A DNA stretch of 54,837 nt, filler included. It is 4 parts of 4 records of this genome, joined end to end, with 100 filler letters (N's around TTAATTAATTAA, not from the genome) between each part and the next. Parts side by side here need not be neighbours in the genome. Positions count along the whole stretch, not along the records: positions 1 to 9,089 come from SRR33789315_124; 3 more parts are not named here. One strand, given 5' to 3'. Of this stretch, positions 77-37,427 are shown in pieces. The stretch's first letter is position 1, and every line of letters starts with the position of its first letter. Position numbers and translations under genes: made by a program. Below the pieces are notes generated by a model. That model searched no databases. It had not been told where the DNA came from and worked only from the letters and a program-made list of their open reading frames with translations.

Positions 77-84
77 CATTAATG

Positions 85-137
85 AGACACCCATTGTAAC
101 AATTGTCAAAAAAATTATCGAATTACAGTGGGTGTCT
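85..137. repeat. 15-bp inverted repeat (REP-like hairpin)
   Basis: AGACACCCATTGTAA (85-99) pairs with TTACAGTGGGTGTCT (123-137), 1 mismatch. Confidence 0.7.
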
Positions 138-186
138 TCGCAATTCTCCCTTATTCCCGCAATTTTCTTCGCAATTTCTATTCGCT

Positions 187-310
187 GTCCCTAAGTTAAT
201 GGCGGCTCCCATAAGCCATCTCGCTGTCGAAAACTGATATAGATATGATTATCACCGTATCCGCTGTCTCTTTCGCCATCCCATATAATGTAAGACTCAT
301 TTGGAGCGCT
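187..310 (-). pseudogene. remnant of a PD40/WD40-like (TolB-type) beta-propeller protein
   Basis: Minus strand translates APNESYIIWDGERDSGYGDNHIYISFRQRDGLW, then after a frameshift GAAINLG. No start codon or intact ORF. Confidence 0.5.
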
Positions 311-464
311 ATTCCAAATCAAACTATGATTTAGTGACTGATTACTAGCCGCAAAATTAATGACTGAAATAAGGTTAAGAACGAAGTCAGTGCATTGACT
401 CTCGGCATAATTGTGTTGCTAGTGTTAGTCGACAAATTTAAATTTAAATTTAATTTACTCTTCA

Positions 465-496
465 TGTAAAAAAATCCCCAAACATTTACATAACCC
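465..496 (+). promoter_or_regulatory. palindromic operator/promoter motif, copy 1 (TGTAAA-N14-TTTACA)
   Basis: TGTAAAAAAATCCCCAAACATTTACATAACCC, 26/32 identical to the copy at 4269-4300, just upstream of the first module gene. Confidence 0.65.
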
Positions 497-523
497 CTTC
501 TACTACATCATTGGAGTTGGGTT

Positions 524-1081
524 ATGAAAATAAATATACACAAATTAAATCACTTAAGGCCGTTATTAGCTGCGACATTTGCTCTGTCGGTTACTGCCTG
601 TTCGAGTACTTCAGACTATCAGCGGCCGGTGAGTATTGTGGTTCAGGAACCGCAGCGTCCAATGAGTATTATTTCTCAGGACTGCCAGTCACAAGCCACT
701 AATATTGCAAATTACGCAGAAACATCTGAGGTGGCAGTTCAATACCTTACCGCTGCGCGGGCTTTACAAAGTTGTGTTAATAGCCCTTTGCCCGAAACCT
801 TGAATACTGATCAAGCGCAGCAATTGATGCATTTAATGGCCAGTGTGACGTTTAATTATATTAAAGGCGGTGATGTTAGCGCTGCTTACCAACAATTACA
901 GAAATTTGAACAACAGTTTCCTCAACAGGATTTGTATTTTGCTGATTATAGTTCGTTTCTTGATACCGCAAATGCACTGTTACAAGGGGCTCAATTGTCC
1001 TCTCGACAGCTAGCCAGTTTAAATATTAGTCGAGAGCTGCGTGATGAGTTGCAACGTCAGCACTATTGGTTAAGTCATTAA
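524..1081 (+). CDS. putative outer-membrane lipoprotein, helical (possibly TPR-like)
   Basis: Signal peptide with lipobox LSVTA-C26, Ser at +2; GGAG RBS upstream; 185 aa. Confidence 0.75.
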   Translation: MKINIHKLNHLRPLLAATFALSVTACSSTSDYQRPVSIVVQEPQRPMSIISQDCQSQATNIANYAETSEVAVQYLTAARALQSCVNSPLPETLNTDQAQQLMHLMASVTFNYIKGGDVSAAYQQLQKFEQQFPQQDLYFADYSSFLDTANALLQGAQLSSRQLASLNISRELRDELQRQHYWLSH

Positions 1082-1090
1082 GGAGGCGCT

Positions 1091-1969
1091 ATGAAACTCA
1101 TACCTAAATCTTTCTATCTGGCTATTTTTGTGAGCCTTGGAATGGTCACAATTATATCTCCAACCAAAGCTTTTGCCGCAGCCCCAAGTGATTGGCAGCC
1201 TGTGGCGAGTGACAAACTTATTACTTTGCCAGCCAATATAATTGAAAAACGCATCGAGCAGGATTTTAGTGCCTCACCCATGGCGTCTCGGTTAGCCGAA
1301 ATTGATGAACAAATGCAAAATAGTACTCAACGCATTCAGGCATTGCAGAAGGATGAGCAAAAAGCAGAAGGAGAGGGTCTTGATAACCTTCAATATGAAT
1401 TAGTGCAGGAAAAATCTGCCTACTTAGATCAACTGCAAGAAAGCCATCAACTGCGTAAACAAGCCTTAATTAAAAAACAGCGTTTATATGAAGACGTGCT
1501 AGTTCAGTTTCGTAACCAACATGCTGGTGTTGATAGTCAGGTTAGAATTCAAATCAAACGACAACAGCAAGATGCACTGAGCCGAATGGAATCAGTCATG
1601 GCGCAAGTTGACCAAAACTTAATGCATAGTGGCTATCAGAATGCTTCTCCATACGCTGACGAATATGCCAGTAACTTGGCTCAAATTGAGCAGCTCAAAA
1701 CCAAAATCAATCAACACAAAGCCAATGCTGCACCGATGATAGATGGTGCTGAAGTCAGTTCAGAAGAGTATATCCGCCAGTTGTTACACGATGCTTCGAT
1801 GCACCATTCTTTGCTTGATCAAGAAGGACTAATGTTGAGCTATATGGCGCGTTTGGTCGCCCTAGATGCCCAAGCTCTGGAATACAAAATTGCCTACGGT
1901 GACGAAGATATTAAAGCGACTAAACCACAGGTTGCTAGGGCCAGTAAGGCCGTTGATCTGTTTTTATAA
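1091..1969 (+). CDS. exported coiled-coil protein of unknown function
   Basis: Signal peptide ending AFA-A; long Q/E/L/K heptad-rich helices; AGGAGG RBS. Confidence 0.75.
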   Translation: MKLIPKSFYLAIFVSLGMVTIISPTKAFAAAPSDWQPVASDKLITLPANIIEKRIEQDFSASPMASRLAEIDEQMQNSTQRIQALQKDEQKAEGEGLDNLQYELVQEKSAYLDQLQESHQLRKQALIKKQRLYEDVLVQFRNQHAGVDSQVRIQIKRQQQDALSRMESVMAQVDQNLMHSGYQNASPYADEYASNLAQIEQLKTKINQHKANAAPMIDGAEVSSEEYIRQLLHDASMHHSLLDQEGLMLSYMARLVALDAQALEYKIAYGDEDIKATKPQVARASKAVDLFL

Positions 1970-1980
1970 GGAGTAACACA

Positions 1981-2376
1981 ATGATACGTTTACATGCAAA
2001 AAAATGGCTTTTAGCTTCTATGTTATTGGTGGCTTTTAGTAGCCAAGGGAGTGCCACATTTAGTTTAGAAAATTTGGAGCGTGAGCGAGCTGCATTATTA
2101 AATATATTGCTAGATAAAAATTTAAGTGTTGAGCAACGCATACAAAAACAAACCTCTATTTATCGCCGTTTGGTGGATGTTGAGCGCATGGTATTAAGGG
2201 ATGAACGCATCGCCAACGGCGACAAAACTTTAATTAAAAGAGCATTTGCTAATTATGACCTAACCTTTTTGGTGCATGCCAGTGCTGAGAAAAATGCGGC
2301 CCCGCTGCCCCATTGGTTAAATCAAATGGGTATTTCGCAACAGGCTATTGATAAAGGCCGAGTAGGGCAACGCTAA
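1981..2376 (+). CDS. small exported protein of unknown function
   Basis: Signal peptide (KKWLLASMLLVAFSSQGSA); AGGAG RBS; stop overlaps next start (TAATG). Confidence 0.75.
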   Translation: MIRLHAKKWLLASMLLVAFSSQGSATFSLENLERERAALLNILLDKNLSVEQRIQKQTSIYRRLVDVERMVLRDERIANGDKTLIKRAFANYDLTFLVHASAEKNAAPLPHWLNQMGISQQAIDKGRVGQR

Positions 2377-2873
2377 TGAAAGCCTTAACCCTAAGCAGAA
2401 TGTTAAGCAGGGGGCTATTTATTTTAGCTGGATTTGCCCTTGTGTTTCTGGCTGGTCTTAGCTTTGTTACCGATATGCCATTAGCCGTGATGCTTAACTG
2501 GGCACAAAAGATGTTTGGCTGGAGCTTTGTGGGTTTGTTTTCAATGTTATTGGCGCTTGGTGTCATAGCCGCATGCAAATTGCGAGACACTGGTCGCGCT
2601 TCATTGTGGTTTGAAGTAGGACAGCATGCAGCTAATGGTATTGCCACGCTCGCCCTGACCTTTACTTTACTCGGTATCAGTTTAGGAATTGGCTCGTTGT
2701 CTGAGCAAACCCTTTCCCCTGAGACAATTCAGAACATTATTGGTGATATGACACGGCAGTTTTCTATGGCATTTATGACCACTGTAGTGGGCTTGCCTGC
2801 CGCTAGTTTTATTAGAGCATGGGTGGGAATTCAATATCAAACCACCTTAACTTATCAGGAGATAAGTCAATGA
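2376..2873 (+). CDS. MotA/TolQ/ExbB-family proton-channel-like membrane protein (short form)
   Basis: About 4 TM segments; LALTFTLLGISLGI and FSMAFMTTVVGL align with the two Thr-containing channel helices of ExbB/TolQ. Confidence 0.7.
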   Translation: MKALTLSRMLSRGLFILAGFALVFLAGLSFVTDMPLAVMLNWAQKMFGWSFVGLFSMLLALGVIAACKLRDTGRASLWFEVGQHAANGIATLALTFTLLGISLGIGSLSEQTLSPETIQNIIGDMTRQFSMAFMTTVVGLPAASFIRAWVGIQYQTTLTYQEISQ

Positions 2874-3334
2874 AAAAGACCTTATTTGTACTTATAGTCA
2901 TAGCGGCAGGGATTTACTTGGCCAGCCAAACAGACAGCGGCCAAGCATTGGTTAAAGGCTATTTACCCAAGCAGAAGATTGACCAAGCTGCGGAACAATT
3001 GCTGCAGCAAGTGGAGTCACGGATCCAAGATTTTGCTGATCAGCAGGCTGACAAGCAGCAAGAAAAGTTAACAAAATTAGAGCTACGTATTGTGCAATTG
3101 GAACAACAAAAACCGAATGCAAATATTTTGACGAATCAACCCGCCAGTGAAGTTGTGGTTCAAACTAAAGAGTCTGAACTACCCGTTGAAATTGCACCTG
3201 AAGTGCCGGTCTATTCAACGTTTAGTAAGCAGCCAGCAGACAACATTCAATTGCAAGCTAAAAAGCAAGCCTTGCTACAAGACATCGCATCACGGATGGA
3301 GTTGGTATCGGTCCAAGCAATTAATAGCCAGTAA
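2870..3334 (+). CDS. membrane-anchored periplasmic coiled-coil protein
   Basis: Likely start ATG 2870 (ATGA overlap, AGGAG RBS); MKKTLFVLIVIAAGIYL anchor; Q-rich coiled coil and P/E-rich linker. Confidence 0.7.
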   Translation: MKKTLFVLIVIAAGIYLASQTDSGQALVKGYLPKQKIDQAAEQLLQQVESRIQDFADQQADKQQEKLTKLELRIVQLEQQKPNANILTNQPASEVVVQTKESELPVEIAPEVPVYSTFSKQPADNIQLQAKKQALLQDIASRMELVSVQAINSQ

Positions 3335-3355
3335 TTAGAGAAACGGGGCGACACT

Positions 3356-4243
3356 ATGTTTGTGTTGATTAAACGCGGCGCATTGCTCATTGGAATTGTT
3401 ATTGCTGTTATTGGTTTTTGGCAGCTAAGCTCTTGGTGGTATTGGCTTGCGGAGCTTGAGCAGTTGCGGCTGCCGCCTATTATTGAGCAGGCTTTGGATA
3501 AACCCTTAACACCAACATACATGGCACACGCTAATGCCATGTCGATAGTTAGCCCAGTGCCCTTGCCAGCACCCCAATTACATCGAGTATCTCAAAATTT
3601 ACCTACGGCCCAAGTCAGCGAATCTAAAGCAAAGTCATCCAGCATAGACTCCAAGTCATTGGGTGGTAAAGCTAAGGGGCTTGAGGTTAAGGGCCCTGAC
3701 AGTATTGTGCCAGGAGCTAACAATAAAAACAACGACAGCGCGGCAATTAAACCTGCTTTGAAAAGACAGAACGTCAGTCATGCAGATATAGATAATGTAT
3801 ACCAACAACTTCATTCAAATCAGAGTTTAAATATACAGTTGGTTTGGCCTCGTGAAGAGAAGCAACGAGAACAGATTATCGAGCATCTATATCAATGCAC
3901 CGCAATGCAATTTGCTGTTTTGAAGGATTCACAGCTTATTTATGTCTCACCTACACGTTATGTAAAAACGTCTCAGTGGTTACGTGTGGCCCAAGGCGCC
4001 TTGAGTCAAAGGGAAAAAAAATGGCTGCAAGGTCAAAACGGCACACCTGTAAGGTTGTTTGCTCAGTCTATTGACTGGAAATTGTCGCGGATGATTGCTC
4101 GTAACTTAAAAAATACTACACTGCGCTCCTTGCGAGCTGACTATATGCTTACAACTTCAGGACTTATGTTGACCAATATTAATTTGAATGGACTACATAT
4201 TAATGAAAATTGGCTACTCGATGGAACACCAAAAAACTGTTAA
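3356..4243 (+). CDS. single-pass membrane protein with long P/S/K-rich linker and C-terminal globular domain (TonB/TolA-like architecture)
   Basis: N-terminal TM, low-complexity linker (PVPLPAP...SKAKSSSIDSK), folded C-terminal ~150 aa. The TonB likeness is architectural only. Confidence 0.6.
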   Translation: MFVLIKRGALLIGIVIAVIGFWQLSSWWYWLAELEQLRLPPIIEQALDKPLTPTYMAHANAMSIVSPVPLPAPQLHRVSQNLPTAQVSESKAKSSSIDSKSLGGKAKGLEVKGPDSIVPGANNKNNDSAAIKPALKRQNVSHADIDNVYQQLHSNQSLNIQLVWPREEKQREQIIEHLYQCTAMQFAVLKDSQLIYVSPTRYVKTSQWLRVAQGALSQREKKWLQGQNGTPVRLFAQSIDWKLSRMIARNLKNTTLRSLRADYMLTTSGLMLTNINLNGLHINENWLLDGTPKNC

Positions 4244-4268
4244 ATGCTGATTTTAAGCACTAATGAAC

Positions 4269-4300
4269 TGCAAATTTATCCTCAAACATTTGCATAACCC
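4269..4300 (+). promoter_or_regulatory. palindromic operator/promoter motif, copy 2 (TGCAAA-N14-TTTGCA)
   Basis: TGCAAATTTATCCTCAAACATTTGCATAACCC in the gap upstream of the ExbD-like gene. Confidence 0.65.
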
Positions 4301-4315
4301 TTTATGGAGGACTCT

Positions 4316-4744
4316 ATGCAAATACATCAGATAAACGATACAAGTACGCAAGCTATGACAGAAGTCGCTTTGGGTTTAAGCATGGCGTTTTTTGCTCTAT
4401 TAATTCTAGCTTTAATGTCGTTTCAACTACCCAGTCTAAAAACCGACGACAACACTGAATTATCAGGGGCTGATAAGGTTAAAGTTGAGCATAATTCAAC
4501 GCTGGCTTCAACAAGTGAGTCTGATAAGCAATATTTACTTTACTTTCGCGAGCAATTTTACGATTTACAGTTGCTCCCAGTGGTTATTGGTGAAATTCCT
4601 GAGGAGCAAGATTTGATTGTGGCGGTGGAGAGTTCGACGTCCTTTGCCAATGTTATGAGTTTGCGTCAAAAAATAAATCGCACCAACCTGTCTATAACAG
4701 TCATTACACAAGAATGGCTTGGGTTGTTGGAGCAAAAACGGTGA
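4316..4744 (+). CDS. ExbD/TolR-like membrane protein
   Basis: Probable start 4316 after GGAGG; single N-terminal TM (AMTEVALGLSMAFFALLILAL); C-terminal LIVAVESSTSFANVMSL resembles the ExbD periplasmic fold motif. Confidence 0.65.
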   Translation: MQIHQINDTSTQAMTEVALGLSMAFFALLILALMSFQLPSLKTDDNTELSGADKVKVEHNSTLASTSESDKQYLLYFREQFYDLQLLPVVIGEIPEEQDLIVAVESSTSFANVMSLRQKINRTNLSITVITQEWLGLLEQKR

Positions 4745-5517
4745 TCCGTAGTTTATGTTTAGTAATGTTTTTATGGCATTTGCCGGTTTTTGCCGGTGCA
4801 TCTACTGATTCTGAACAAACAGCGGCAATAAAAAAAATGTTAGTTGATGAAGCGCTGTTACAAAACTTGCCTCCTTCATTAATTCTAGCGGTCGCCAAGG
4901 TTGAATCAGATTTCAATCCTATGGCTATAAGCCATGTAGGTGCCAAAGGAATCATGCAAATTATGCCAGAAACTGCAGTGAAAGAATTTGGTGTAAGTAG
5001 TGAAGCGCTTTACGATCCGCAAACTAATATTCGTGTCGGTGTGCGTTTTATTAAACATCTGTTAGGTCAATACAATGGCAAAGTGGATATTGCGCTTTCC
5101 CATTATAACGGTGGCTCTGGGGTACGTATATCTAAGGGTACAACCAGAATCATTCCCAGCACTCAATCCTATGTCAAAAAGGTACAACACTATGCCCTAA
5201 GCTACCAACGTGCTGGTTATGACAGAGATTATAAAGGACAGTTGGCTAGGCTATCTGAGCGACAACAAATAATAGGACAAGAAGGACTCAACACTAAAAC
5301 CAGTGGTAATAACACTGTGGAGATGATTGAACCTGATGATTTTGCAGATGAACGTATTGATGTATTAAAAGATATTCAGTTGCATAACTTAACCCGCGAA
5401 GCTGGCCCACGTTTAAATGCGTCTATGGCCGTTCAGCAGAAAGAACAACGACGAGAGACTAAGTCGCAAGCTGATAAGCGTCGCTTGGTTCTAGGTTGGG
5501 AAGAAATATTTAATTAG
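4741..5517 (+). CDS. SLT-domain lytic transglycosylase
   Basis: Catalytic VESDF, GIMQIMP and ALSHYNGG motifs; signal peptide after a GTG start overlapping the upstream stop (GTGA). Confidence 0.9.
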   Translation: MIRSLCLVMFLWHLPVFAGASTDSEQTAAIKKMLVDEALLQNLPPSLILAVAKVESDFNPMAISHVGAKGIMQIMPETAVKEFGVSSEALYDPQTNIRVGVRFIKHLLGQYNGKVDIALSHYNGGSGVRISKGTTRIIPSTQSYVKKVQHYALSYQRAGYDRDYKGQLARLSERQQIIGQEGLNTKTSGNNTVEMIEPDDFADERIDVLKDIQLHNLTREAGPRLNASMAVQQKEQRRETKSQADKRRLVLGWEEIFN

Positions 5518-5595
5518 AACAAATACATAAGTTTAGGCTTGATAATTTCATTTTTTAAATTACATTGAAGCGACGCAAAAATTGCTGGAGTTTTG

Positions 5596-7221
5596 ATGTC
5601 TACAATTGTGGGTTATGGGGTTAGTGATACCCTAAAAAGCCTATTCGAGGGATTGCGACAGACGACAAAAGAAGATGGCGTAACGCCTGTTTATCACGAC
5701 AAAGATGTAAGAGAACTCGCCAAACATCTGTGTTGTCGCAATTATGGCTTTTTGTGTTGGGAGTTGCTTCACTTATATTGGGCCGTGGTTCACGCATATC
5801 CATCGTTTCGAGGGCAAAATAGCTGGTTGAACTTTTTTTGGATTGAGCGCCCTTTTTCCGCTAAAACCTTTAGATCGGCATTTAGTCAGGGCGCCAGCTG
5901 GCAAGGTGGAGAAGTCAAAATGGAGAGTGAGGCCTTAAGTATCGTTATCGGCCCCGCTAAATTTGCTATTTCTCCAACAAGAATCAGTTTGTTAGCGACT
6001 TTTAACGAATTTTTACTCAGTGTCGATTCAGGGTTAATCCAAGGTTTTCAAACTGAATTAATTCATTCTGATATAAATAAAGTTAAACAGCTTTCTAATC
6101 AATTGCAGACGGTACTATATGAGTTTTTGAAAACACATATACCTGTCGCCCAACAGCAAACACGCTTTCGGTATTTTGAAAATTGGCTGAAAAATGCCGA
6201 TTTAAGCCCAGAAAATGTAAATGATGGGGATATTTTTCAGTTTTGGGTTAGAGCAAGTGAAGACCCAGACGCAGAAAGTTATAAACGCTTTCATACCGCA
6301 TTTTTTGATGTTTTGGATAGTTTGACGGCCTTTAAAGTCGTGGACTCGCAAAATGGTGCGGCGTATGCGCAAACCATTGGGGGTGACTTCCAAAAGGGGG
6401 AATTAGACGCGGGTGATTGGCAAGAAAGCTTTGCTACAGACAGCAGTAATGAAATGTCAGTGAGTAACTTGGCAAATTTAGCATTTGAAGATGTTGATGA
6501 AAACTTTGATGTAAATAGTTTGAGTAAAACACCTAAGTGCCTTTCACAAAATGAAATCAGCGCCATGCTTTATCCAATGACTTACTCGGTTTATGCAGGC
6601 AGATTTTTACTTTCTTTTTTACGTCTTTATGTGTTTGACAAGTGGCAAGCTGTGATTATTCAGGCAATGCGCAAATCGAAATCATCTGTATATGAAAAAT
6701 TACAACAGCCTCCATCAGACACTTATGGCACTTATCTTCAATTATTAGATTCATGTAATGAGTCATTGGTTTTTTCACGAGACTGCTTGCTGCATATATT
6801 ATTGCAGATTGAACCTAAAGACGCCTGTTCAGAACTACTGCAAGGACTGTCCAAAAGCACATTAGCTGATATTGCTTTGTGGATGCATGAAAGTGACACT
6901 CAATCTGACATGAATCATTTAGCCAAAAAACTTATTATGGGTTTTCCTGAATTTCGTCGGGCGGTAGAAAATTGTGAAATAGCGTACAGAAAAAATAATA
7001 AAGCAGGTTTTAAGCAGCTAACGGAAGCTATTGACCCAGAAATTTATTTAGAAACCTTAAATAAGGTTAATAAAACCACAGCTAAACTTGACAGCTTTAG
7101 ACTTAAAATTAAGCAGTTTTTGATTGATGATCTTTCATTGGAAACAAAATTTTCCTCAGATGTTTGCATATTCACTAGTAGATTTAATTCGCTTTATGGA
7201 GACAATAATGCAGGGGAATAA
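5596..7221 (+). CDS. large cytoplasmic helical protein of unknown function
   Basis: About 540-aa ORF with GGAG RBS before ATG 5596; no signal peptide, TM or catalytic motif that I recognise. Confidence 0.75.
   Translation: MSTIVGYGVSDTLKSLFEGLRQTTKEDGVTPVYHDKDVRELAKHLCCRNYGFLCWELLHLYWAVVHAYPSFRGQNSWLNFFWIERPFSAKTFRSAFSQGASWQGGEVKMESEALSIVIGPAKFAISPTRISLLATFNEFLLSVDSGLIQGFQTELIHSDINKVKQLSNQLQTVLYEFLKTHIPVAQQQTRFRYFENWLKNADLSPENVNDGDIFQFWVRASEDPDAESYKRFHTAFFDVLDSLTAFKVVDSQNGAAYAQTIGGDFQKGELDAGDWQESFATDSSNEMSVSNLANLAFEDVDENFDVNSLSKTPKCLSQNEISAMLYPMTYSVYAGRFLLSFLRLYVFDKWQAVIIQAMRKSKSSVYEKLQQPPSDTYGTYLQLLDSCNESLVFSRDCLLHILLQIEPKDACSELLQGLSKSTLADIALWMHESDTQSDMNHLAKKLIMGFPEFRRAVENCEIAYRKNNKAGFKQLTEAIDPEIYLETLNKVNKTTAKLDSFRLKIKQFLIDDLSLETKFSSDVCIFTSRFNSLYGDNNAGE
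7143..7174 (+). promoter_or_regulatory. degenerate third copy of the module motif
   Basis: AACAAAATTTTCCTCAGATGTTTGCATATTCA, 22/32 identical to copy 2, about 35 bp upstream of ATG 7208. Confidence 0.45.
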
Positions 7222-7741
7222 ACGTAAGTTGGCAGAGGCTATATTTTCTGTACGTACGTCTTATCGTGAACTAACAACAGCTCAGAATGACGCTGCCATC
7301 GTATTTAATGATCTATTATGTTTGGTTAATGGTTTTCGAGAAGAAAATGCTGAGTATATACTCCAGCAAATAAATCAGGATGTTAAACTGTTTAGTCAAT
7401 ATCGCGATTTGGTGCGTCAACGTCACTATGATCAAAGTCTTTCGTTGGCTGCTGCCAGTTCAGGCTCTGATTTACCTGTTAGACAAACAGATAAATTCGT
7501 TTTGAAATTTAAACGGGATAGAATGGTCCCAAGTCAAATATTCGCTATTTTGTTAATTACCCATCCCTCAGAGCGACACAGTGTCAGTGGGGTAGTGATC
7601 AATATATTTAGCCAAGATATCTGTGAACGAATACATTTTCCTGCGGTAATTGACGGTCATTCTCAATTATTATTTGAACAGGATGATCCAAAATTGAAAC
7701 TGTTACTGGATGCCAACGCTGAAATTAGTATCATGCGCTAG
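7208..7741 (+). CDS. cytoplasmic two-domain protein of unknown function (candidate protease substrate/anti-factor)
   Basis: Start 7208 with GGAG RBS; helical N-half, LAAASS linker, beta-rich C-half. Confidence 0.65.
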   Translation: MQGNKRKLAEAIFSVRTSYRELTTAQNDAAIVFNDLLCLVNGFREENAEYILQQINQDVKLFSQYRDLVRQRHYDQSLSLAAASSGSDLPVRQTDKFVLKFKRDRMVPSQIFAILLITHPSERHSVSGVVINIFSQDICERIHFPAVIDGHSQLLFEQDDPKLKLLLDANAEISIMR

Positions 7742-7767
7742 CGATGGGTCAAAAAGGAATAAATGGG

Positions 7768-8982
7768 ATGAAACTGCATATATTTGTCGCAACGACGCAG
7801 GGGCTTGTTGCCGTTCAAAAAATTTATGAGCAGGATCCTGAAATTGGTTCAGTGGTATCGATAAATGGTACCGCAACAATTTCGCCTATTACCCAAGCCT
7901 ATAAGAGCTTTGTTAATAAAGGCGCCGGAATTATAGCCGCTGACTTTGGCGGCTCATCTTATCGGGTTAATATCAGTGGACAAATCGATCAGGGAAATAG
8001 TTGGCAACTTGGTTTTTATCTCGCCCATGCGGTTAATGTACAAGGGCTTTTAGGCAATGGTGACGTTACAAACGACGACATGGTAATAGTGGCCACAGGT
8101 GAAATAAATACCAGTGAACGGAATGTTCTGGCGGTAGAGGAGGTTCCTCTAAAATTAAAAAAGGCCAATCAAATAGCTTGTCATTGGCCGCAATCGGTAA
8201 AGAAACTGTTTTTTATTCCTGCAGAAAATAAATTATCCGTTGTAAATGAAAATTCATTTTTAGAATTAAAATTTATTCGTGTTCTTGATGAGGTTTTTTC
8301 ATACTTTCCTATTGCTGATATTTCAAAACCTAAGATGAACAAAGCGAAATATTATGCCTTGCTTGGACTTATGGGAGTAGCCACACTATTCGCTACTTAT
8401 CAATTGAATTGGCTTGGATTACCTGACAGTCCTAAAGAGTTTAAGCAAGTTTTAGCTCCGCAGTTTATGAGACAAGCCGACAGTTCTATTCCTAAGTCAA
8501 CAACAGGTAATCCTATGCTACCTAGTGTTATCCCGCAAAAAAGTTCGGCTGAGAAGCCATTAGCACAATTGACCTTAGCTTATGGCATCGATAGAGGATG
8601 TGATAACAACAAAAGAACCTATCTAAAAGTAGCCGCGAGCTTGTCGCGGTTTGATACCGCAGAATATAGTGGCTTGTGTGAAATTATTTTTTCAGGCTTA
8701 GCTAATGTTTCAACCGTGATTGCCATTAATCGACACTCGCATCGCTATATATTCGCCACAAAATCAAATCAACAATTTATCCTGCCCGCACCTTCTGTTG
8801 CCGCAGAGTATTTAATTATTGCCCTGGAAAAAGACTTAAGTGATGCGTCAAAACAACAGTTGCGCTCATACTTATTTAATTTGCCCGCTCAAATGGTAAT
8901 TTCAACAGAAAGTATTAAGGAGATTTCATTGTTTAAAGGCAATCAACTGCAAATCTACAAACATCAGTTAAAAAATATTTAA
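7768..8982 (+). CDS. membrane-anchored Lon-type (S16-like) Ser-Lys protease domain plus TM plus putative periplasmic domain
   Basis: IDQGNSWQLG...VATGEI...VLAVEEVPLK...FFIPAEN parallels Lon PKDGPSAG...TGEI...LPIGGLKEK...VLIPFEN. TM YYALLGLMGVATLFATY; no AAA+ motifs. Start could be 7744. Confidence 0.65.
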   Translation: MKLHIFVATTQGLVAVQKIYEQDPEIGSVVSINGTATISPITQAYKSFVNKGAGIIAADFGGSSYRVNISGQIDQGNSWQLGFYLAHAVNVQGLLGNGDVTNDDMVIVATGEINTSERNVLAVEEVPLKLKKANQIACHWPQSVKKLFFIPAENKLSVVNENSFLELKFIRVLDEVFSYFPIADISKPKMNKAKYYALLGLMGVATLFATYQLNWLGLPDSPKEFKQVLAPQFMRQADSSIPKSTTGNPMLPSVIPQKSSAEKPLAQLTLAYGIDRGCDNNKRTYLKVAASLSRFDTAEYSGLCEIIFSGLANVSTVIAINRHSHRYIFATKSNQQFILPAPSVAAEYLIIALEKDLSDASKQQLRSYLFNLPAQMVISTESIKEISLFKGNQLQIYKHQLKNI

Positions 8983-9061
8983 AGGTTTTGGTAGTACTGA
9001 ATGGTTTTTATTTGAATATTACAAATATTCAAGGAACGAACGTGATTACGAAAAGGAGTAT

Positions 9062-9089
9062 TGGTACAACCGAGTGGACTCGAACCACC
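9062..9089 (-). tRNA. 3' portion of a tRNA (likely tRNA-Val), or an att duplicate of it; truncated by contig end
   Basis: Minus strand GGTGGTTCGAGTCCACTCGGTTGTACCA gives T-arm, acceptor strand and CCA; resembles the tRNA-Val(GAC) 3' end. Anticodon not visible. Confidence 0.8.
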
Positions 9090-9189
9090 NNNNNNNNNNN
9101 NNNNNNNNNNNNNNNNNNNNNNNNNNNNNNNNNTTAATTAATTAANNNNNNNNNNNNNNNNNNNNNNNNNNNNNNNNNNNNNNNNNNNN
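9090..9189. other. artificial contig linker
   Basis: N44-TTAATTAATTAA-N44 (stops in all six frames). Confidence 0.97.
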
Positions 9190-9421
9190 TTTTATACCGC
9201 AAAGATCAACACGCTCTAGACTTTTACTCGGGTTATTCACCATTTTCGCCAACAAGAATGGTCCGCCATTGGGATTAATTTTTTCATAGTAATAGTGGGC
9301 GTGTTTATTGGTATTTAAGTGTCTAACTGGAATGCTGCGAGACTAGAGCAGCAATACGCAGAAAACGACTCAGAACGCCTGTTTAAAGAATTAGTGTAAA
9401 ATTAAAACAATACAGGTTCAC

Positions 9422-12163
9422 ATGAAAAATACCAATTATCTAAAACAAGAACTCTACGAACTTATTAAAACCGATGAGTCAATTTTTGATTTTATTCAGG
9501 AGTATTCTCTAGATGGCTTGTGGTATTGGGATTTGGAGCAGCCCGAAGAAGAATGGATGAACCCTAAATTTTGGTCTGTTTTAGGCTATGACCACCGAGA
9601 AATGCCGCATAAAGCATCGGCCTGGCAAGATATTATCCACCCTGAGGATTTAACACTTGCCACAGAAAACTTTATCAAGCATTGCGAAAACCCAGATTAT
9701 CCTTACGATCAAACGGTACGCTATATTCATAAAAATGGCTCTACCGTATGGATCAGGTGCCGTGGTTTGGCTGTCAGGGATAAGCATGGCAAACCACTAA
9801 GAATGTTAGGGGCTCATCAAGACATTACAGACATTAAAAACAACGAATTACTGCTTCAGATGAAGACTGCCCAACTTCGAAACGCCCAACACGTTTCCAA
9901 AGTAGGTAGCTGGGAATTGGATTTAAAAACCAATGAGGTGGTCTGGACAGAAGAACTTTACAAAATGTATGGCTTTAATCCTGCACTTTCCCCACCACCT
10001 TACCCCGAACAAAAGAAGCTGTTCACTCCGAAAAGTTGGGCGGTTTTAACGTCTTCTGTCGACCTTGCTAGAGAGCAAGGCATTCCTTATGAATTAGAAC
10101 TTGCAACCATTCGCAAAGATGGAAGCCATGGATGGATGTGGGTCCGTGGAGAGGCGATATTTGATGAAAATAACAATATCATTGGCTTAAGGGGGGTGAC
10201 GCAAGATATCACCGAGAAAAAGATACTTGAATTGGAAAAAGAAGCATTAATCAAACGTTTAAATTATGCTTTGGACGCGTCAGGTGACGGCATTTGGGAT
10301 TGGACACCTGCGAATGGTACCACCGTTTTTTCGAAGGCATGGATAGAAATGCTGGATTATGAGGTGGGCGAGCTTGCCTCCCTAGCAAGTGAATGGTCTG
10401 ATAGATTACACCCCGATGATGCTGAGTGGGTTTTTACGGCAATTAGTAAAGTCACCCAGACGCCTGAAAATGGCGACACATTTAGCCACGAATACCGATT
10501 TAGAAATAAAGCAGGCGACTATTTGTGGATACTGAACAAAGCAAAAGTTGTCGAGCGAAATGAACAAGGAGAAGCAAGCAGAGTAGTCGGTACGCACATC
10601 AACATTACCGAACAAAAAAAATCTGAGCAAGCACTCAAAGATAGTGAGCTACGCCTAAGTTTTGCTACAAAAGCAGGGGGTGTAGGAGTTTGGGATTGGG
10701 ATATTGTAAAGAATATTCTGACATGGGATGAACAAATGTTTGCTTTATATGGCGTAAAAAGGGAACAATTTTCTAATGCGTATGAAGCTTGGTATAACGG
10801 CATATTTGAAACTGACAGAGAAAGAAGTAATACAGAAATTGAATTAGCGATAAAGGGCGAGAAAGAATTTAACACAGAGTTTCGAGTCCAACATCCAAAC
10901 GGTGAGATCAGAAATATTAGAGCACTTGGCATAGTAGTAAGAGATCAAGATGACAAAGCGATTAGAATGATTGGTACCAATTGGGATATCACCAAAGAAA
11001 AAGAAGCCTTAAGACAACTCGAAGAAGCAAAAAAACAAGCAGAAGCCGCCAGCAAAGCAAAATCAGAGTTTCTTGCTAATATGAGCCACGAAATACGCAC
11101 CCCCATGAACGGTATTTATGGCACCTTACAACTACTCAAAGTTGAGCAACTATCAGAAAAAGGCAGAGGCTTTATCAACAAAGCCGAGTATTCCTGTAAA
11201 AGCCTGTTAACTATCATTAACGATATTTTAGATTTTTCAAAAATAGAAGCAGGCCAGATCGATTTTGAAAACATACCTTTTAGTCTGGAAGGTGTAATTG
11301 AAAAAATTTCATCAGACATGCTGCCACTGGCAATAGATAAGAATATTGTCTATGAGGTGAACAACCACCTCACACACGATATGTGGATAGGAGACCCTGT
11401 AAGGGTCGGCCAAGTGATGCTCAATTTAATCTCTAATGCGCTTAAGTTTACGGCACAAGGCAAGGTAACGCTGTCGTTATCTTCACAGCAGCAAGCTTCA
11501 AACGACATTATTGTAATCGAGATAGCAGATACTGGCATTGGTATAGATAAAAAGGCGATGGACAAGCTATTTTTACGCTTTAGCCAAGCGGATCAGTCCA
11601 TTACCCGAAAATATGGCGGCACAGGTCTTGGTCTGCCGATTACTCAATCCTTAGTGCATTTGATGGAAGGGCAAATATCGGTCGACAGTGAGATTAACAA
11701 AGGCACAATTATTCGGGTCACTTTACCGCTAAAAAAAGCACAAGCCTCCGCCGACGACTTGGTATTTACACCAACCCCCGAAAGCAGACTGAATCTGACA
11801 GGCAAACATATTCTCATTGCGGAAGATAACGCCATTAACCAAGTCATAATCGAAGCCATGCTGGAACCCTTAAACCCCACACTGACTATTGTCGCTAATG
11901 GCGAAGAGGCAGTGCAAAGTGCATTGGCTAAACGCCCCGATTTGATTTTGATGGACATCCAAATGCCAGTAAAAGATGGTGTAACCGCTTGCAAAGAGAT
12001 ACTGGCACATATGCCTGACCTACCTATTGTCGCATTAACTGCCAATGTTATGGCCCAAGATATAGACACTTATTTAGAGGCGGGCTTTGTCGCGCATGTG
12101 GGTAAACCCTATGAAATATCTGTGCTGGAAGAAAAGCTGAAACAGCTACTGCTTGATAGCTAA
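9422..12163 (+). CDS. hybrid sensor histidine kinase (4 PAS/PAC, HisKA, HATPase_c, REC)
   Basis: Repeated G-x-W-D/E-W PAS starts; FLANMSHEIRTPMNG; NALKFT; DTGIGI; GGTGLGL; receiver AEDN...LMDIQMP...K. Confidence 0.95.
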   Translation: MKNTNYLKQELYELIKTDESIFDFIQEYSLDGLWYWDLEQPEEEWMNPKFWSVLGYDHREMPHKASAWQDIIHPEDLTLATENFIKHCENPDYPYDQTVRYIHKNGSTVWIRCRGLAVRDKHGKPLRMLGAHQDITDIKNNELLLQMKTAQLRNAQHVSKVGSWELDLKTNEVVWTEELYKMYGFNPALSPPPYPEQKKLFTPKSWAVLTSSVDLAREQGIPYELELATIRKDGSHGWMWVRGEAIFDENNNIIGLRGVTQDITEKKILELEKEALIKRLNYALDASGDGIWDWTPANGTTVFSKAWIEMLDYEVGELASLASEWSDRLHPDDAEWVFTAISKVTQTPENGDTFSHEYRFRNKAGDYLWILNKAKVVERNEQGEASRVVGTHINITEQKKSEQALKDSELRLSFATKAGGVGVWDWDIVKNILTWDEQMFALYGVKREQFSNAYEAWYNGIFETDRERSNTEIELAIKGEKEFNTEFRVQHPNGEIRNIRALGIVVRDQDDKAIRMIGTNWDITKEKEALRQLEEAKKQAEAASKAKSEFLANMSHEIRTPMNGIYGTLQLLKVEQLSEKGRGFINKAEYSCKSLLTIINDILDFSKIEAGQIDFENIPFSLEGVIEKISSDMLPLAIDKNIVYEVNNHLTHDMWIGDPVRVGQVMLNLISNALKFTAQGKVTLSLSSQQQASNDIIVIEIADTGIGIDKKAMDKLFLRFSQADQSITRKYGGTGLGLPITQSLVHLMEGQISVDSEINKGTIIRVTLPLKKAQASADDLVFTPTPESRLNLTGKHILIAEDNAINQVIIEAMLEPLNPTLTIVANGEEAVQSALAKRPDLILMDIQMPVKDGVTACKEILAHMPDLPIVALTANVMAQDIDTYLEAGFVAHVGKPYEISVLEEKLKQLLLDS

Positions 12164-12328: not shown

Positions 12329-14665
12329 TTAGAGTGGCTGCTTTTTCAGTCGCAAAGCGTTAACAATCACAGACACTGAACTTAAGCTCATCGCAGCGCT
12401 GGCAAGCATGGGGCTGAGTAAAATACCAAACCACGGATACAAAATACCCGCTGCGACAGGCACACCCAAAAAGTTGTAAATAAAAGCAAAAAATAAATTT
12501 TGACGCACATTATTCATGGTGTTTTGACTGAGCAAACGGGCCTTGGTGATACCACGCAAATCTCCTTTTACCAATACAATCCGAGCACTATTCATGGCGA
12601 CGTCAGTACCGGTGCCCATGGCAATGCCAACATTGGCTTGAGCAAGTGCAGGTGCGTCATTGATACCGTCCCCCGCCATTGCCACAATATGCCCCTGCTC
12701 TTGCAGTCCTTTAAGAAACGCTAGTTTATCTTCAGGTGTCACATCGGCTTTAACATCATCCAGACCTAACGATTTGGCTACCGCTGCCGCAGTGGTGGCA
12801 TTATCTCCAGTCAACACCACAATTTTCAACCCCACTGCATGCAGTTGTTTTATGGCTTCAGCGCTGCTGGGTTTAATGGTATCGGCAATACTAATAATGC
12901 CTGCCAACACATTGTCAACGGCAATAAATATAACCGTATGACCTTGTTCTCTGAGCGACTGTACGTCAGTCTGCAAGGACGAAACATCAACTTTTTGCTG
13001 TTCCATTAACTGACTATTTCCCACCACAATGGCCTTGCCATCAACCTCACCACGCACACCTTGTCCAGTGATAGAGGTAAAATCCCGCACTTCTTTGAGT
13101 GTCAGATCTTGATTTTTGGCATGTTCGACTATGGCTGCGGCTAAGGGATGTTCACTGGCGGCATCTAAACTTGCCGCCAGTTGCAGGACATCGTTTTCTG
13201 CCATACCTTGATCCGCGCCGTCATGGTTAACTAGCAGACGTTGAACTTTGGGGTGACCTTCGGTGATCGTACCGGTTTTGTCGACCAACAAGGTGTCGAC
13301 TTTTTCCATCAGTTCCAAGGCTTCGGCATCTTTGATCAGCACGCCTTCTTGGGCTCCGCGACCAATACTCACCATAATAGAAATGGGCGTGGCTAAACCC
13401 AGCGCACAAGGACACGCCACAATGAGTACTGACACTCCCACAATTAGCGCGTTGGCCATAGCCGGCGCGGGCCCAAATATCGCCCACACGATAAAAGCTA
13501 GCACCGCAGCTGACATTACCGTAGGCACAAACCACGCCGACACTTTGTCTGCCAGTTTCTGGATAGGTGCCCGCGAGCGGCTAGCATCATTGACCAACTT
13601 AACAATACTGGCGAGCAAGGTGTCAGAGCCAATCTTGTCTGCCCGCAGCACAAAGGTACCCGTTGTATTTAAGGTACCCGCGGTGACTTTACTGGCCACT
13701 TTTTTTTCTACCGCTACTGCTTCACCAGTGATCATGGACTCGTCAATATTAGAGTGGCCCTCAATAATTTCACCATCGACTGGTACTTTGCCCCCTGGTT
13801 TAACTCGTAGTTTGTCGCCTACCTCAACCTTATCGAGCGCCACCTCTTCTTCACTGCCGTCTGACTTAATTCTCAGTGCCGTATCGGGAGCCAATTGCAG
13901 TAATGATTTAATTGCACTATTGGTTTTAGAACGTGCGCGCAGTTCAAGTACTTGGCCCATTAATACCAAAGTGATGATTACTGCGGCCGCTTCAAAATAT
14001 AGGGGTGCTCTGCCATCCAGCTTGAATGCGTCGGGCAAGGCCGACGGCATCAACAAGGCAAATACACTGAACAAAAACGCGGCCGATGTACCTAATGCTA
14101 TGAGGCTGAACATATTGAGATTCCAGCTCAAGAATGACGCCCAGCCCCGTTTAAAAAACGGCCAACCGCCCCACACTACCACTGGCGTTGCTAACGTTGC
14201 TTGCAACCAACTACTGGTTTTTTCTCCTAGCCAGTTCTGTGGGTCAATGCCTAGAATAAGGCCGCTCATGGTAAGAATTAATAAAGGCAAACTTAATGCT
14301 AAACAAAACCAAAATCGCCGCGTCATTTGCGTGAGTTCGGCAGTATCTTCTTCAGCCACCGCATTCATGGGTTCGAGCGCCATACCGCATATAGGACAAG
14401 GGCCTGGAGCATCTTGCTGGATTTCTGGATGCATGGGGCAAGTGAAAATGGTGTGATTATTTGACGCTAAGTTGGTGGACTTTGGATTGGACTGCGGATC
14501 ACTAGTCGATGCCGATTTCTGTTCAGAATGTAAATAGTGTTCGGGATCTTCCTTAAATTTCACAACACAGGATGCACCACAAAAAAAATATTGCTTTCCA
14601 GCGTGTTCAACAACCTTATCTGTATCAGCGGAAACGGCCATTCCACATACGGGATCTTGATGCAT
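12329..14665 (-). CDS. copA: Cu(+)/Ag(+)-translocating P1B-type ATPase with N-terminal YHS and CPMHP metal-binding domains
   Basis: DPVCGM, TCPMHP, CPCALGLA, DKTGT, SEHP and GDGINDAPAL motifs. Confidence 0.92.
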   Translation of the reverse strand: MHQDPVCGMAVSADTDKVVEHAGKQYFFCGASCVVKFKEDPEHYLHSEQKSASTSDPQSNPKSTNLASNNHTIFTCPMHPEIQQDAPGPCPICGMALEPMNAVAEEDTAELTQMTRRFWFCLALSLPLLILTMSGLILGIDPQNWLGEKTSSWLQATLATPVVVWGGWPFFKRGWASFLSWNLNMFSLIALGTSAAFLFSVFALLMPSALPDAFKLDGRAPLYFEAAAVIITLVLMGQVLELRARSKTNSAIKSLLQLAPDTALRIKSDGSEEEVALDKVEVGDKLRVKPGGKVPVDGEIIEGHSNIDESMITGEAVAVEKKVASKVTAGTLNTTGTFVLRADKIGSDTLLASIVKLVNDASRSRAPIQKLADKVSAWFVPTVMSAAVLAFIVWAIFGPAPAMANALIVGVSVLIVACPCALGLATPISIMVSIGRGAQEGVLIKDAEALELMEKVDTLLVDKTGTITEGHPKVQRLLVNHDGADQGMAENDVLQLAASLDAASEHPLAAAIVEHAKNQDLTLKEVRDFTSITGQGVRGEVDGKAIVVGNSQLMEQQKVDVSSLQTDVQSLREQGHTVIFIAVDNVLAGIISIADTIKPSSAEAIKQLHAVGLKIVVLTGDNATTAAAVAKSLGLDDVKADVTPEDKLAFLKGLQEQGHIVAMAGDGINDAPALAQANVGIAMGTGTDVAMNSARIVLVKGDLRGITKARLLSQNTMNNVRQNLFFAFIYNFLGVPVAAGILYPWFGILLSPMLASAAMSLSSVSVIVNALRLKKQPL

Positions 14666-15517: not shown

Positions 15518-16570
15518 TTAAGGGCTAACTTCGTTAATGATAAGGTTACCGGGTGTAGGCGGTAATCTAGGCATTATTTGTTGTGGAAATGGCCCGGTCA
15601 GGGAGCCCAAAAACGCCGTAATATCATTTACCTCGCTGTCACTTAAGGTTTTATTGAGTTGCGTCGATGCCATCACCCGCACCGTCTCTTCTAATGACTG
15701 CACAATACCGTTATGCATGTAGGGCGCGGTATATAGCAAATTACGTAATCCCGGTACCCGCCACATATGTTCGTCACTGGGTTGATGAGTGGACTCGGCC
15801 CGCCCTTTATCTTTAAGTAAATCGTATTTGGCCACATAGGGGCTATCAACAAAAGTCGGGAACTGCATGAAAAAACCAGTACCAGTAGGTAATGCCGGAC
15901 CACTAAAATTCGGCCCTTGGTGACAAGCGGTACAACCTGTACTGACAAAGGTATTCATGCCACGTATTTGTTGTTCATTCAGCGCTGTCGTTTCGCCCTT
16001 GGCGTAGCGATCATAGACACTATTTGGCGTGATCAGTGTTCGCTCGTAGGCCGCAATTGCGCGGGCCGCATTGTCCATAGTCACAACATCACCGGAGCCA
16101 AAAGCACTGACAAATATCGGTTTGTAACCAGGGATATGGCGGACACGGTCAATCACATTAGTCAAGTCACCCATGCCCATTTCAACTGGATTGACGGGTG
16201 GCCCTTTGGCTTGTTCTTCAAGAGATGCGGCGCGACCATCCCAGAACTGGGTGGATAAAAACGCGGCATTCCATACCGAAGGCGCATTACGTCCCCCCAA
16301 TTGACCATGTACACCAATAGAAGTGGGACGATGATCATCACCGCCTTCGGTAATGTTGTGACAGTTAAAACAAGATACTGTGCCTGTGGATGAAAAGCGC
16401 GGATCAAAAAACAACATTTTACCCAAGGAAACTTTGGCGTCCGTAGTGGGATTATCAGCAGGCGCAGGCGCAACCGTTGGCAAGGCCTGCCACTGACCAC
16501 TACTCTGCGCTAAAACACTATTGGCACTGGCAAATAATATAACACCGCAAATTAAGCTAACATTTTTCAT
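15518..16570 (-). CDS. ccp: di-heme cytochrome c peroxidase
   Basis: Signal peptide; two CxxCH (CFNCH, CTACH); RNAPSV, QFWDGRA and TAPYMHNG motifs. Confidence 0.92.
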   Translation of the reverse strand: MKNVSLICGVILFASANSVLAQSSGQWQALPTVAPAPADNPTTDAKVSLGKMLFFDPRFSSTGTVSCFNCHNITEGGDDHRPTSIGVHGQLGGRNAPSVWNAAFLSTQFWDGRAASLEEQAKGPPVNPVEMGMGDLTNVIDRVRHIPGYKPIFVSAFGSGDVVTMDNAARAIAAYERTLITPNSVYDRYAKGETTALNEQQIRGMNTFVSTGCTACHQGPNFSGPALPTGTGFFMQFPTFVDSPYVAKYDLLKDKGRAESTHQPSDEHMWRVPGLRNLLYTAPYMHNGIVQSLEETVRVMASTQLNKTLSDSEVNDITAFLGSLTGPFPQQIMPRLPPTPGNLIINEVSP

Positions 16571-16670: not shown

Positions 16671-17237
16671 TCAGCGTGATTTACGCCACGGCAGCATGCG
16701 CGGCAGCATGCGTAACAGCACATTGTCTTTTTGGATATAGTGATGAAACAATGCAGCAGTGGCATGTAAACCGATGAGATAGTAGCCCGCCGTGCCGATT
16801 AACCCGTGGATATCCTCAAGCTGTTTGGCCAGTACCTTGTCTATACTAATCAGCGCTGGGAGCTCTAAACCAAAGAAGGGTATCGTGGCCCCCTCCGCGC
16901 TCAATATAGACCAGCCCAATAACGGCATGACAATCAAGAACAGATACAAGGTAAACTCGACACTATTGGCCGTCATTCTCTGCCAAAATGGTAATGGCGG
17001 AACAACCGGTGGAATATTTCCGCTTAGACGCACGACCAATCGCAACCACAACAGACAAAACACCGAGAGACCCAACATAAAATGCCAGGTTTTTAATCCT
17101 GCACGCATGTCGCTGCCCCGCTCAAACAATTCACGTAATTCGATACAGGCATACACGCCAATCAACAGCAACAACATCAGCCAATGCAATGCCATTAGCC
17201 ATGATCCGTAACGAGCAGGGTGATTTTCTATGTTCAT
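16671..17237 (-). CDS. cybB: cytochrome b561 (CybB/YceJ family)
   Basis: LHWLM, WHFMLG, IH and LHATAALFHH heme-ligand His pattern; 4 TMs. Confidence 0.88.
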   Translation of the reverse strand: MNIENHPARYGSWLMALHWLMLLLLIGVYACIELRELFERGSDMRAGLKTWHFMLGLSVFCLLWLRLVVRLSGNIPPVVPPLPFWQRMTANSVEFTLYLFLIVMPLLGWSILSAEGATIPFFGLELPALISIDKVLAKQLEDIHGLIGTAGYYLIGLHATAALFHHYIQKDNVLLRMLPRMLPWRKSR

Positions 17238-37424: not shown

Positions 37425-37427
37425 AGT

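Follow-up and report, generated by a model that had tools for sequence, protein, structure and literature searches.

We examined a stretch of 54,837 nucleotides (hereafter the window), made up of four contigs placed end to end, and describe here a gene of its first contig (SRR33789315_124) that codes for a protein of 404 residues, which we call the receptor. The N-terminal domain of this protein has the fold of the Lon proteolytic domain, with a Ser-Lys dyad at homologous and conserved positions, and is followed by a membrane-spanning stretch and by a C-terminal domain predicted to be periplasmic. The gene is the last of 11 co-directional genes (524-8982 of contig 1), and the protein encoded directly upstream of it, of 177 residues, is predicted to dock on the Lon-like domain. 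The features are collected in table 1. The contigs meet at 9090-9189, 33070-33169 and 48691-48790, where runs of N surround the TTAATTAATTAA linker, and the gene neighbourhood is thus unreadable across these points.

A Lon-Fold Ser-Lys Domain without ATPase

Translation of 7768-8982 yields the 404 residues with zero internal stops. The longest open reading frame (ORF) starts at 7744, merely eight residues earlier; the ATG at 7768 is the real start, since its Met is the first residue in all 37 aligned homologues (37/37; M-K-x-H-I/V-F). A preliminary description of this DNA had read in the gene a D-x-G-x-S motif, TGEI, a lysine, FIPAEN, a transmembrane (TM) stretch and two C-terminal cysteines, and had proposed a Lon-type protease domain devoid of ATPase. 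The translation returns all of these exactly where they had been placed: D74-Q-G-N-S78, A109-T-G-E-I113, Lys129 (51 residues beyond Ser78) and F149-I-P-A-E-N154, the domain also holding the third cysteine of the protein, Cys138.

The receptor was modelled with AlphaFold2 (AF2) on a 38-sequence alignment. The mean predicted local distance difference test (pLDDT) is 86.6, and residues 1-180 exceed 90 in each 10-residue block save 51-60 (82). In the model the fold starts at residue 3, Ser78 stands just ahead of a helix (80-91) and Lys129 lies inside another (126-137). When the model was compared with the PDB by Foldseek, 81 matches were obtained at E<=1e-3, and each of those listed is either a proteolytic domain of Lon or the Lon-like RadA domain. 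The best Lon matches span some 190-200 columns, with E from 1.1e-6 to 1e-4 and target-normalised template-modelling scores (TMt) of 0.55-0.63; they include M. jannaschii Lon (1xhk_A; E 1.1e-6, TMt 0.60) and E. coli Lon (3wu3_F; TMt 0.63), with further matches to Lon of A. fulgidus, Y. pestis and Meiothermus and to human LONP1. The RadA domain (5lkq_A) matches at TMt 0.64, on par with true Lon.

We also aligned the 38-sequence family profile to the protease domain of E. coli Lon (residues 585-784) with hhalign, which gave a pairwise E of 8e-4 over Lon residues 675-770. In this register Ser78 corresponds to Ser679, T110-G-E-I to T704-G-E-I, Lys129 to Lys722 and FIPAEN to LIPFEN, the eight additional residues between Ser and Lys being distributed in four small insertions. 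Conservation was counted over the non-gap rows among 194 domain rows, taken from 191 family proteins: Ser78 (190/190) and Lys129 (188/188) are invariant, as are Gly76 (190/190) and Thr/Ser110 (189/189), with Gly111 at 188/189. Two other residues, Trp79 (8002-8004; 190/190) and His87 (8026-8028; 189/190), are about as invariant as the dyad, and are family specific, given that E. coli Lon has Ala and Leu at the aligned positions. From the Foldseek matches and the hhalign register, the motifs are not a chance pattern: the N-terminal domain has a Lon proteolytic fold, with the dyad homologous and conserved. Two of the findings that the preliminary description named as refuting it, an N-terminal domain of another fold and a variable Ser or Lys, are thus contradicted by the data. 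Protease activity would be the plausible consequence of such a domain. Neither Pfam nor NCBIfam detects an AAA domain in the receptor, and since the Lon-like fold starts at residue 3 and the frame upstream is closed by a stop at 7739-7741, the protein carries no ATPase, again in keeping with the earlier proposal.

Membrane Topology and the C-Terminal Domain

Beyond the Lon-like domain AF2 places a helix at residues 192-215, which we assign to a single membrane passage. By a crude scan, one hydrophobic stretch is present in 161 of 191 family members and two in 14. In the receptor, four Lys occur in the 15 residues before the TM core, with two Lys and two acidic residues after it. The same bias is seen in the family: of 168 members, 135 have more Lys/Arg ahead of the first TM stretch than behind it, and 18 show the opposite (mean 3.1 before, 1.2 after). 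This bias predicts a cytoplasmic N-terminus, in agreement with the domain fusions of relatives, in which a kinase stands before the TM stretch and an FHA domain after a second one.

The 186 residues past the hydrophobic stretch, close to the 190 or so of the preliminary description, hold exactly two cysteines, Cys278 and Cys304, both invariant in 24 aligned C-domain sequences. Modelled alone with AF2 on 24 sequences (pLDDT 94.1, predicted template-modelling score 0.88), the C-domain is a beta-sandwich with two helices. Foldseek retrieved zero PDB matches to it at E<=1e-3, and only weak resemblances to Ig-like or CopC-like beta-sandwiches (template-modelling score <=0.5); its profile hidden Markov model (HMM) matches 157 of the 191 family proteins. 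The C-domain is a new domain, probably periplasmic and disulfide-bearing. Overall, the Lys/Arg bias, the invariant cysteines and the placement of kinase and FHA domains in relatives support the topology first suggested for this gene: a cytoplasmic Lon-like domain, one TM helix and a periplasmic domain.

Family Size and Domain Fusions

A word-indexed search returned 63 relatives, and every source-named one is a "hypothetical protein", the annotation that had been anticipated; likewise, the ESM Atlas matches the receptor only to unnamed "hypothetical protein" clusters, at 0.94. When 1.84 billion representatives were searched exhaustively with a profile, 891 passed E<=1e-3; 773 of them also passed E<=1e-10, and 356 passed E<=1e-30. 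This puts the family at 891 clusters at 50% identity. No copy was found by tblastn on 72,556 plasmids or in 50,697 phage records, and full-text literature searches returned no description of the receptor architecture.

Most of the collected proteins (128/191) have 300-444 residues, like the receptor. Among 50 members of at least 445 residues, eight carry Pfam domains: FHA in four, Pkinase in three and FGE-sulfatase alone in one, while Lon_C was found in none of the 50 at E<=1e-4. One of the Pkinase-fused relatives also bears TonB_C, and another PG_binding_1 plus FGE-sulfatase. The kinase domain follows the Lon-like domain directly, ahead of the TM stretch, in three relatives, and the FHA domain lies beyond a second TM stretch in four. 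Two of the loci described below (L014 10001-12613, 870 residues; L030 2966-7054, 1362 residues) encode a form with Lon-like domain, Ser/Thr kinase, TM stretch and periplasmic domain, at the same position in the gene cluster as the receptor gene; the Colwellia form (L006-L010; 801-982 residues) combines Lon-like domain, TM stretch, C-domain, a second TM stretch and an FHA-bearing region.

The Predicted 177-Residue Partner

Scanning one genome per species yielded 45 loci, with which the proteins of the window were compared by tblastn. In 31 of these loci the gene of the 177-residue protein immediately precedes the Lon-like gene. Mechanically, its ORF would begin at 7124 and overlap the upstream gene by 98 bases; the overlapping frame carries stops in seven loci, and we set the start at the ATG at 7208 because homologues show it. 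The protein consists of an N-terminal helical half, an Ala85-Ala86-Ala87-Ser88 linker (7448-7459) and a C-terminal docking half; among 19 sequences Ala87 is invariant and Ala86 nearly so.

The complex of Lon-like residues 1-185 with this protein was predicted in three runs, next to three controls. The interface score ipSAE is 0.81 (runs 0.81, 0.80 and 0.81) versus 0.12 for the best control, the runs share at least 97% of their contacts, and the partner has a pLDDT of at least 73. The mark applied to this score is reached by 51 of 78 solved complexes and by 2 of 108 mismatched pairs. In the predicted complex, residues 18-46 and 66 of the Lon-like domain meet residues 104-118 and 149-164 of the partner, an interface that includes the invariant Arg66 of the Lon-like domain and the invariant Gln114 and Gln157 of the partner. 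The prediction thus supports binding of the 177-residue protein to the Lon-like domain.

A Conserved Envelope Gene Cluster

The loci belong to Paraglaciecola, Colwellia, Pseudoalteromonas, Glaciecola, Agaribacter, Thalassotalea and Alteromonas, with others in Cellvibrionaceae and several metagenome-assembled genomes of Rhodospirillales. The most constant neighbour is the gene of a 542-residue protein, and the three loci in which it is not seen upstream are cut short there. Pfam, NCBIfam, PADLOC and PDB sequences give zero matches to this protein, and a search with its family profile retrieved 24 proteins without a Pfam domain, all source-named ones being "hypothetical". Further upstream lie a lytic transglycosylase gene, the gene of a 146-residue protein and six envelope genes, coding for a lipoprotein-like protein (185 residues), a coiled-coil secreted protein (292), a secreted protein (131), a four-TM protein (165) and two TM proteins (171 and 295). 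Five of the six (524-2873 plus 3356-4243) form a block present in 24-30 of the 45 loci; it may precede the Lon-like gene, which is the arrangement of the window, or follow it immediately. The gene order of the window recurs in L005 and L028. In L005, an FGE-sulfatase-domain gene (3-1427) is found just upstream of the first cluster gene; the contig of the window begins 523 bases before that gene, so an equivalent could lie beyond its end.

Only the lytic transglycosylase, among the 11 proteins, matches a curated family. Pfam gave nothing above the curated cut-off for 110 homologues of eight cluster gene families, a set that leaves aside four of the eight references whose overlap region contains stops; PADLOC gave no convincing match to any of the 11 proteins, and PDB profile searches with the 542-, 177- and 165-residue families retrieved nothing. 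The last two helices of the 165-residue protein carry invariant motifs; PADLOC matches this protein to ZorA at E 0.026 and the Atlas to MotA_ExbB clusters at 0.89. Against E. coli MotA, TolQ and ExbB, hhalign of its family was not significant (E 0.17-0.32), and Pfam MotA_ExbB was found in 0 of 21 scanned homologues. The 146-residue protein shows a MotB-like "MAFF" stretch, and when its family was aligned to MotB, TolR and ExbD, the only match was of 19 columns to the TM segment of E. coli MotB (E 2.3e-3). The likeness of the two proteins to MotA/ExbB/TolQ and MotB, respectively, is a weak lead, which we retain because the PADLOC ZorA match and the Atlas agree in direction.

Some other loci have, inside the cluster, a Ser/Thr kinase-TM-FGE-sulfatase gene and an FHA gene: kinase and/or FGE-sulfatase genes occur in 22 of the 45 loci (in several, FGE-sulfatase alone) and FHA in 10. 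Gene order and sequence identity track taxonomy across the Alteromonadales genera, and the flanks of the five loci examined contain ordinary metabolic and regulatory genes, with no mobile-element or defence genes by Pfam. The receptor belongs, therefore, to a conserved multi-gene envelope cluster. The preliminary description had pictured a one-component transmembrane protease receptor; the transmembrane protease receptor is supported, yet the one-component part has to be given up, in view of the cluster and of the predicted docking partner.

Table 1. Positions of the Receptor Gene, Its Parts, and Its Neighbours in the Window.
Feature	Coordinates	Strand	Basis
Contig bounds	1-9089, 9190-33069, 33170-48690, 48791-54837		
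Six envelope genes	524-4243	+	ORFs
165-residue four-TM protein, MotA/ExbB-like lead	2376-2873		
171-residue TM protein	2819-3334		Detected in 4/45 loci
146-residue single-TM protein, invariant Glu in helix, MotB-like lead	4304-4744	+	Family alignment; 24/45 loci
Lytic transglycosylase (SLT domain)	4714-5517	+	Pfam SLT E 8.3e-25; 27/45 loci
542-residue cytoplasmic protein, unknown family, constant neighbour	5593-7221	+	Upstream in 42/45 loci
177-residue partner, probable substrate or adaptor	7208-7741	+	Start by family alignment; predicted complex
Lon-like receptor gene (P0001), 404 residues	7768-8982	+	ORF and translation; start by 38-member family alignment
Lon-fold Ser-Lys domain, residues 1-182, predicted cytoplasmic, no AAA+ module before it	7768-8313	+	AF2, Foldseek, hhalign
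Ser78 codon (AGT), predicted nucleophile	7999-8001	+	Aligned to Lon Ser679
Lys129 codon (AAA), predicted general base	8152-8154	+	Aligned to Lon Lys722
Single membrane-spanning stretch, residues 195-218	8350-8421	+	AF2 helix 192-215, charge bias
Linker, residues 223-261, variable	8434-8550	+	pLDDT <50; unalignable, of variable length across the family
C-terminal beta-sandwich, residues 262-404, predicted periplasmic	8551-8979	+	AF2 model, family HMM
Cys278 codon	8599-8601	+	Invariant
Cys304 codon	8677-8679	+	Invariant

Comparison with Known Lon-Domain Proteins

Canonical Lon (E. coli LonA and the membrane-bound archaeal LonB; MEROPS S16) shares with the receptor the proteolytic fold and, in register, the Ser, the Lys and TGE. 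In contrast, the receptor has neither the AAA+ ATPase nor the N-terminal substrate domain, is undetected by Pfam Lon_C, carries the family-specific Trp79 and His87, and has its TM stretch C-terminal to the Lon-like domain, with an extracytoplasmic domain beyond. The C-terminal domain of RadA/Sms, a DNA helicase in which it is described as Lon protease-like, is a comparable structural match. This RadA domain is not known to have the catalytic dyad, whereas in the receptor family the dyad is invariant. B. subtilis DdcP/YlbL is reported to be an ATPase-less, membrane-anchored protease with an N-terminal anchor and extracellular PDZ and Lon peptidase domains (bioRxiv 10.1101/391730). By comparison, the Lon-like domain of the receptor is N-terminal and predicted cytoplasmic, Pfam finds no PDZ domain, and a separate, predicted periplasmic domain lies beyond the TM stretch; the N-terminus belongs to the fold instead of serving as an anchor, and the charge bias puts the N-terminal domain inside. 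LonC of Meiothermus taiwanensis is reported as a Lon-family member with no need of ATP hydrolysis (PMC3391209, PMC13069640); it is soluble and retains a degenerate AAA-like module, whereas the receptor is membrane-anchored and has no such module.

The nearest working analogue is CalpL. According to its report (bioRxiv 10.1101/2024.05.08.593097), CalpL joins a SAVED to a Lon domain and has a Ser-Lys dyad numbered S152/K193 or S154/K195. CalpT docks on CalpL at a distance from the active site of the latter; CalpL becomes active when it forms filaments and cleaves CalpT in trans at an LAAA motif, between A204 and A205. Both systems fuse an AAA+-less Lon-fold Ser-Lys domain to a sensor domain, and both encode a small protein that docks on it (here by prediction) and has an Ala-rich motif (LAAA versus A-A-A-S). 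They differ in the sensor, which is a cytoplasmic SAVED domain for cyclic nucleotides in CalpL but a TM helix and periplasmic beta-sandwich in the receptor, and in the Ser-Lys spacing (41 residues in CalpL, with S152/K193, versus 51). The CalpL system has, in addition, a CRISPR context and the sigma factor CalpS; the receptor locus has neither, with no CRISPR genes or sigma factor near the receptor gene by Pfam and NCBIfam.

A Model of Signal-Controlled Proteolysis

The computations show the Lon fold, a dyad that is homologous and conserved, the lack of an ATPase, a gene neighbourhood that is conserved, and a complex in which the partner is predicted to dock. They support a reading of the receptor as a transmembrane signalling protease that cuts its docked 177-residue partner, to which we assign a probability of roughly 0.55. 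The protein would be a single-pass inner-membrane receptor, its N-terminal 182 residues forming an ATPase-less cytoplasmic Lon-fold serine protease (Ser78-Lys129) and its C-terminal 143 residues a disulfide-bearing periplasmic beta-sandwich of a new family, acting with its two upstream neighbours within the conserved envelope cluster. The C-terminal half of the 177-residue protein would dock on the N-terminal sub-domain of the Lon-like domain. Some periplasmic event, as we imagine it, alters the association among receptor molecules, and the protease may then cut the docked partner. The cut would probably be made in trans, its probable site being the conserved Ala-Ala-Ala-Ser linker, which we propose by analogy to CalpT. 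Cleavage would free the N-terminal half of the partner and/or the 542-residue protein as output. The logic would be that of CalpL with CalpT, a transmembrane sensor taking the place of the SAVED nucleotide sensor.

Several observations weigh against this reading. At the level of sequence, a Pfam scan of the receptor at E<=1 returns zero Lon_C (PF05362) and noise only, so that the Pfam model named in the preliminary description as a way to recognise the domain fails to find it. NCBIfam and PADLOC scans give zero matches, and searches of PDB sequences, whether started from the protein or from the family profile, bring up no Lon, only noise (Lin1944, E 0.027; a lipoprotein, E 0.5). The hhalign probability is merely 24%, because the template is a single sequence. 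Given that RadA matches the model as well as Lon does, the fold alone is no proof of catalysis. The TM stretch of the receptor is weakly to moderately hydrophobic (best 19-residue Kyte-Doolittle mean 1.26, compared with 2.0-2.9 in homologues among those listed). As for the partner, 7 of 44 neighbouring gene pairs drawn blindly also pass the complex test, the protein has no detectable similarity to any solved chain, and its Ala-rich linker falls outside the confidently placed interface residues, meaning that nothing places the linker in the active site. Pfam and NCBIfam reveal no sigma-factor domain in the 542- and 177-residue proteins or their homologues; as no library makes the 542-residue protein a sigma factor, the analogy to CalpS stops short of the output. 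Finally, the copy of the cluster in the window, in contig 1 as sequenced, is without a kinase, FGE-sulfatase or FHA gene.

Alternatively, the receptor could be a membrane-tethered housekeeping or assembly protease, not switched by a signal, that trims or degrades the envelope machine of its own cluster or unfolded membrane proteins, with the 177-residue protein as adaptor or inhibitor. The cluster is chromosomal, the five loci have flanks of ordinary genes, genes of the envelope-assembly type such as the SLT lytic transglycosylase are part of it, and a partner docking away from the catalytic residues also suits an adaptor. A conserved periplasmic domain and fusions to kinase, FHA, TonB_C and FGE-sulfatase, on the other hand, are to be expected of a signalling device and not of a bulk protease, and a strictly conserved partner with an invariant Ala-Ala linker fits such a device as well. 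Broad degradation of folded proteins is, moreover, unlikely for a Lon domain that has no unfoldase. Degradative, ATP-independent, membrane-anchored Lon-domain proteases do exist, as the report on DdcP/YlbL indicates (bioRxiv 10.1101/391730); still, we regard a housekeeping role as unlikely for the receptor.

The cluster as a whole might also be an anti-phage or other conflict system on guard at the envelope. The Lon-like protease would then be an effector switch that frees a toxic or regulatory protein upon invasion. ATPase-less Lon domains act in this manner in type III CRISPR, as the CalpL report cited above shows; FGE-sulfatase (FGS), kinase and FHA domains, which in our family are fused or adjacent, recur in the conflict systems of a published survey (eLife 2020;9:e52696), and the 165-residue protein resembles, weakly, ZorA, the MotA-like component of Zorya defence. 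The main text of that survey does not have "Lon" as a whole word. Against such a role, PADLOC convincingly matched none of the 11 proteins, the plasmid and phage collections held zero copies, gene order and identity follow taxonomy across the genera, and mobile-element and defence genes are missing from the five flanks by Pfam; a defence function thus appears rather improbable. Lastly, we consider it highly improbable that the Lon-like domain has no catalytic role and serves, in the manner of RadA/Sms, as a scaffold or binding module that only anchors the 177- and 542-residue proteins at the membrane: the equal RadA match and the fact that the sole interaction predicted so far is docking, with no substrate in the active site, would suit such a module, but Ser78, Lys129, Gly76, Thr/Ser110 and Gly111 are invariant or nearly so in some 190 diverse members, Ser78, Lys129 and Thr110 occupy the positions of the Lon catalytic Ser679, Lys722 and Thr704, and with the dyad so conserved a pseudo-enzyme is not expected.

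Returning to the signalling protease, a wider and decidedly tentative extension takes the whole 11-gene cluster as an unrecognised envelope-spanning sensory machine with a proteolytic switch. A MotA/MotB-like ion-driven unit, together with the periplasmic coiled-coil proteins, the lipoprotein and the lytic transglycosylase, would probe the state of the envelope; the result would pass via the periplasmic domain of the receptor to the cytoplasmic Lon-like protease; the docked 177-residue partner would be cut, releasing the 542-residue protein as the response; and in many lineages the switch would be coupled to phospho-signalling by Ser/Thr kinases and FHA domains, or fused with it. If true, this would amount to a new class of transmembrane proteolytic signalling in Gram-negatives, different from regulated intramembrane proteolysis.

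Proteases with the Lon fold are familiar from three settings: degradation machines driven by ATP, extracellular proteases linked to PDZ domains, and CalpL of CRISPR systems, which is switched by nucleotides. A family of 891 clusters would add a fourth, in which a transmembrane receptor has a bare Lon domain as its output in the cytoplasm. The protein is probably a previously undescribed kind of membrane receptor, encoded beside the small protein that it would bind and cut, and it offers a model, open to direct test, of proteolysis controlled by a signal across the inner membrane, complete with candidates for the substrate and for the cleavage motif. Our results also draw attention to the conserved cluster of about 11 genes, which occurs in marine Gammaproteobacteria and has relatives in Rhodospirillales, and the kinase, FHA, TonB_C and FGE-sulfatase fusions suggest a link between proteolysis and phospho-signalling that is not described in the literature searched.

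Other Features of the Window

The last bases of contig 1 (9063-9089) resemble, by eye, the 3' end of a minus-strand tRNA truncated by the contig end; ARAGORN reported zero tRNAs on 1-12000. In contig 2, a hybrid histidine kinase bearing four PAS domains plus a receiver (9422-12163) was considered as a partner of the receptor and ruled out: its contig is another than that of the receptor gene, past the N-run at 9090-9189, and it is not syntenic in the other loci, where weak matches occur in 4 of 45, elsewhere in the locus. The kinase gene and three others noted on this contig are ordinary and without relation to the Lon-like finding; the three encode a CopA-type copper P-type ATPase (12329-14665), an MbnH/MauG-like di-haem enzyme (15518-16570) and a cytochrome b561 (16671-17237).

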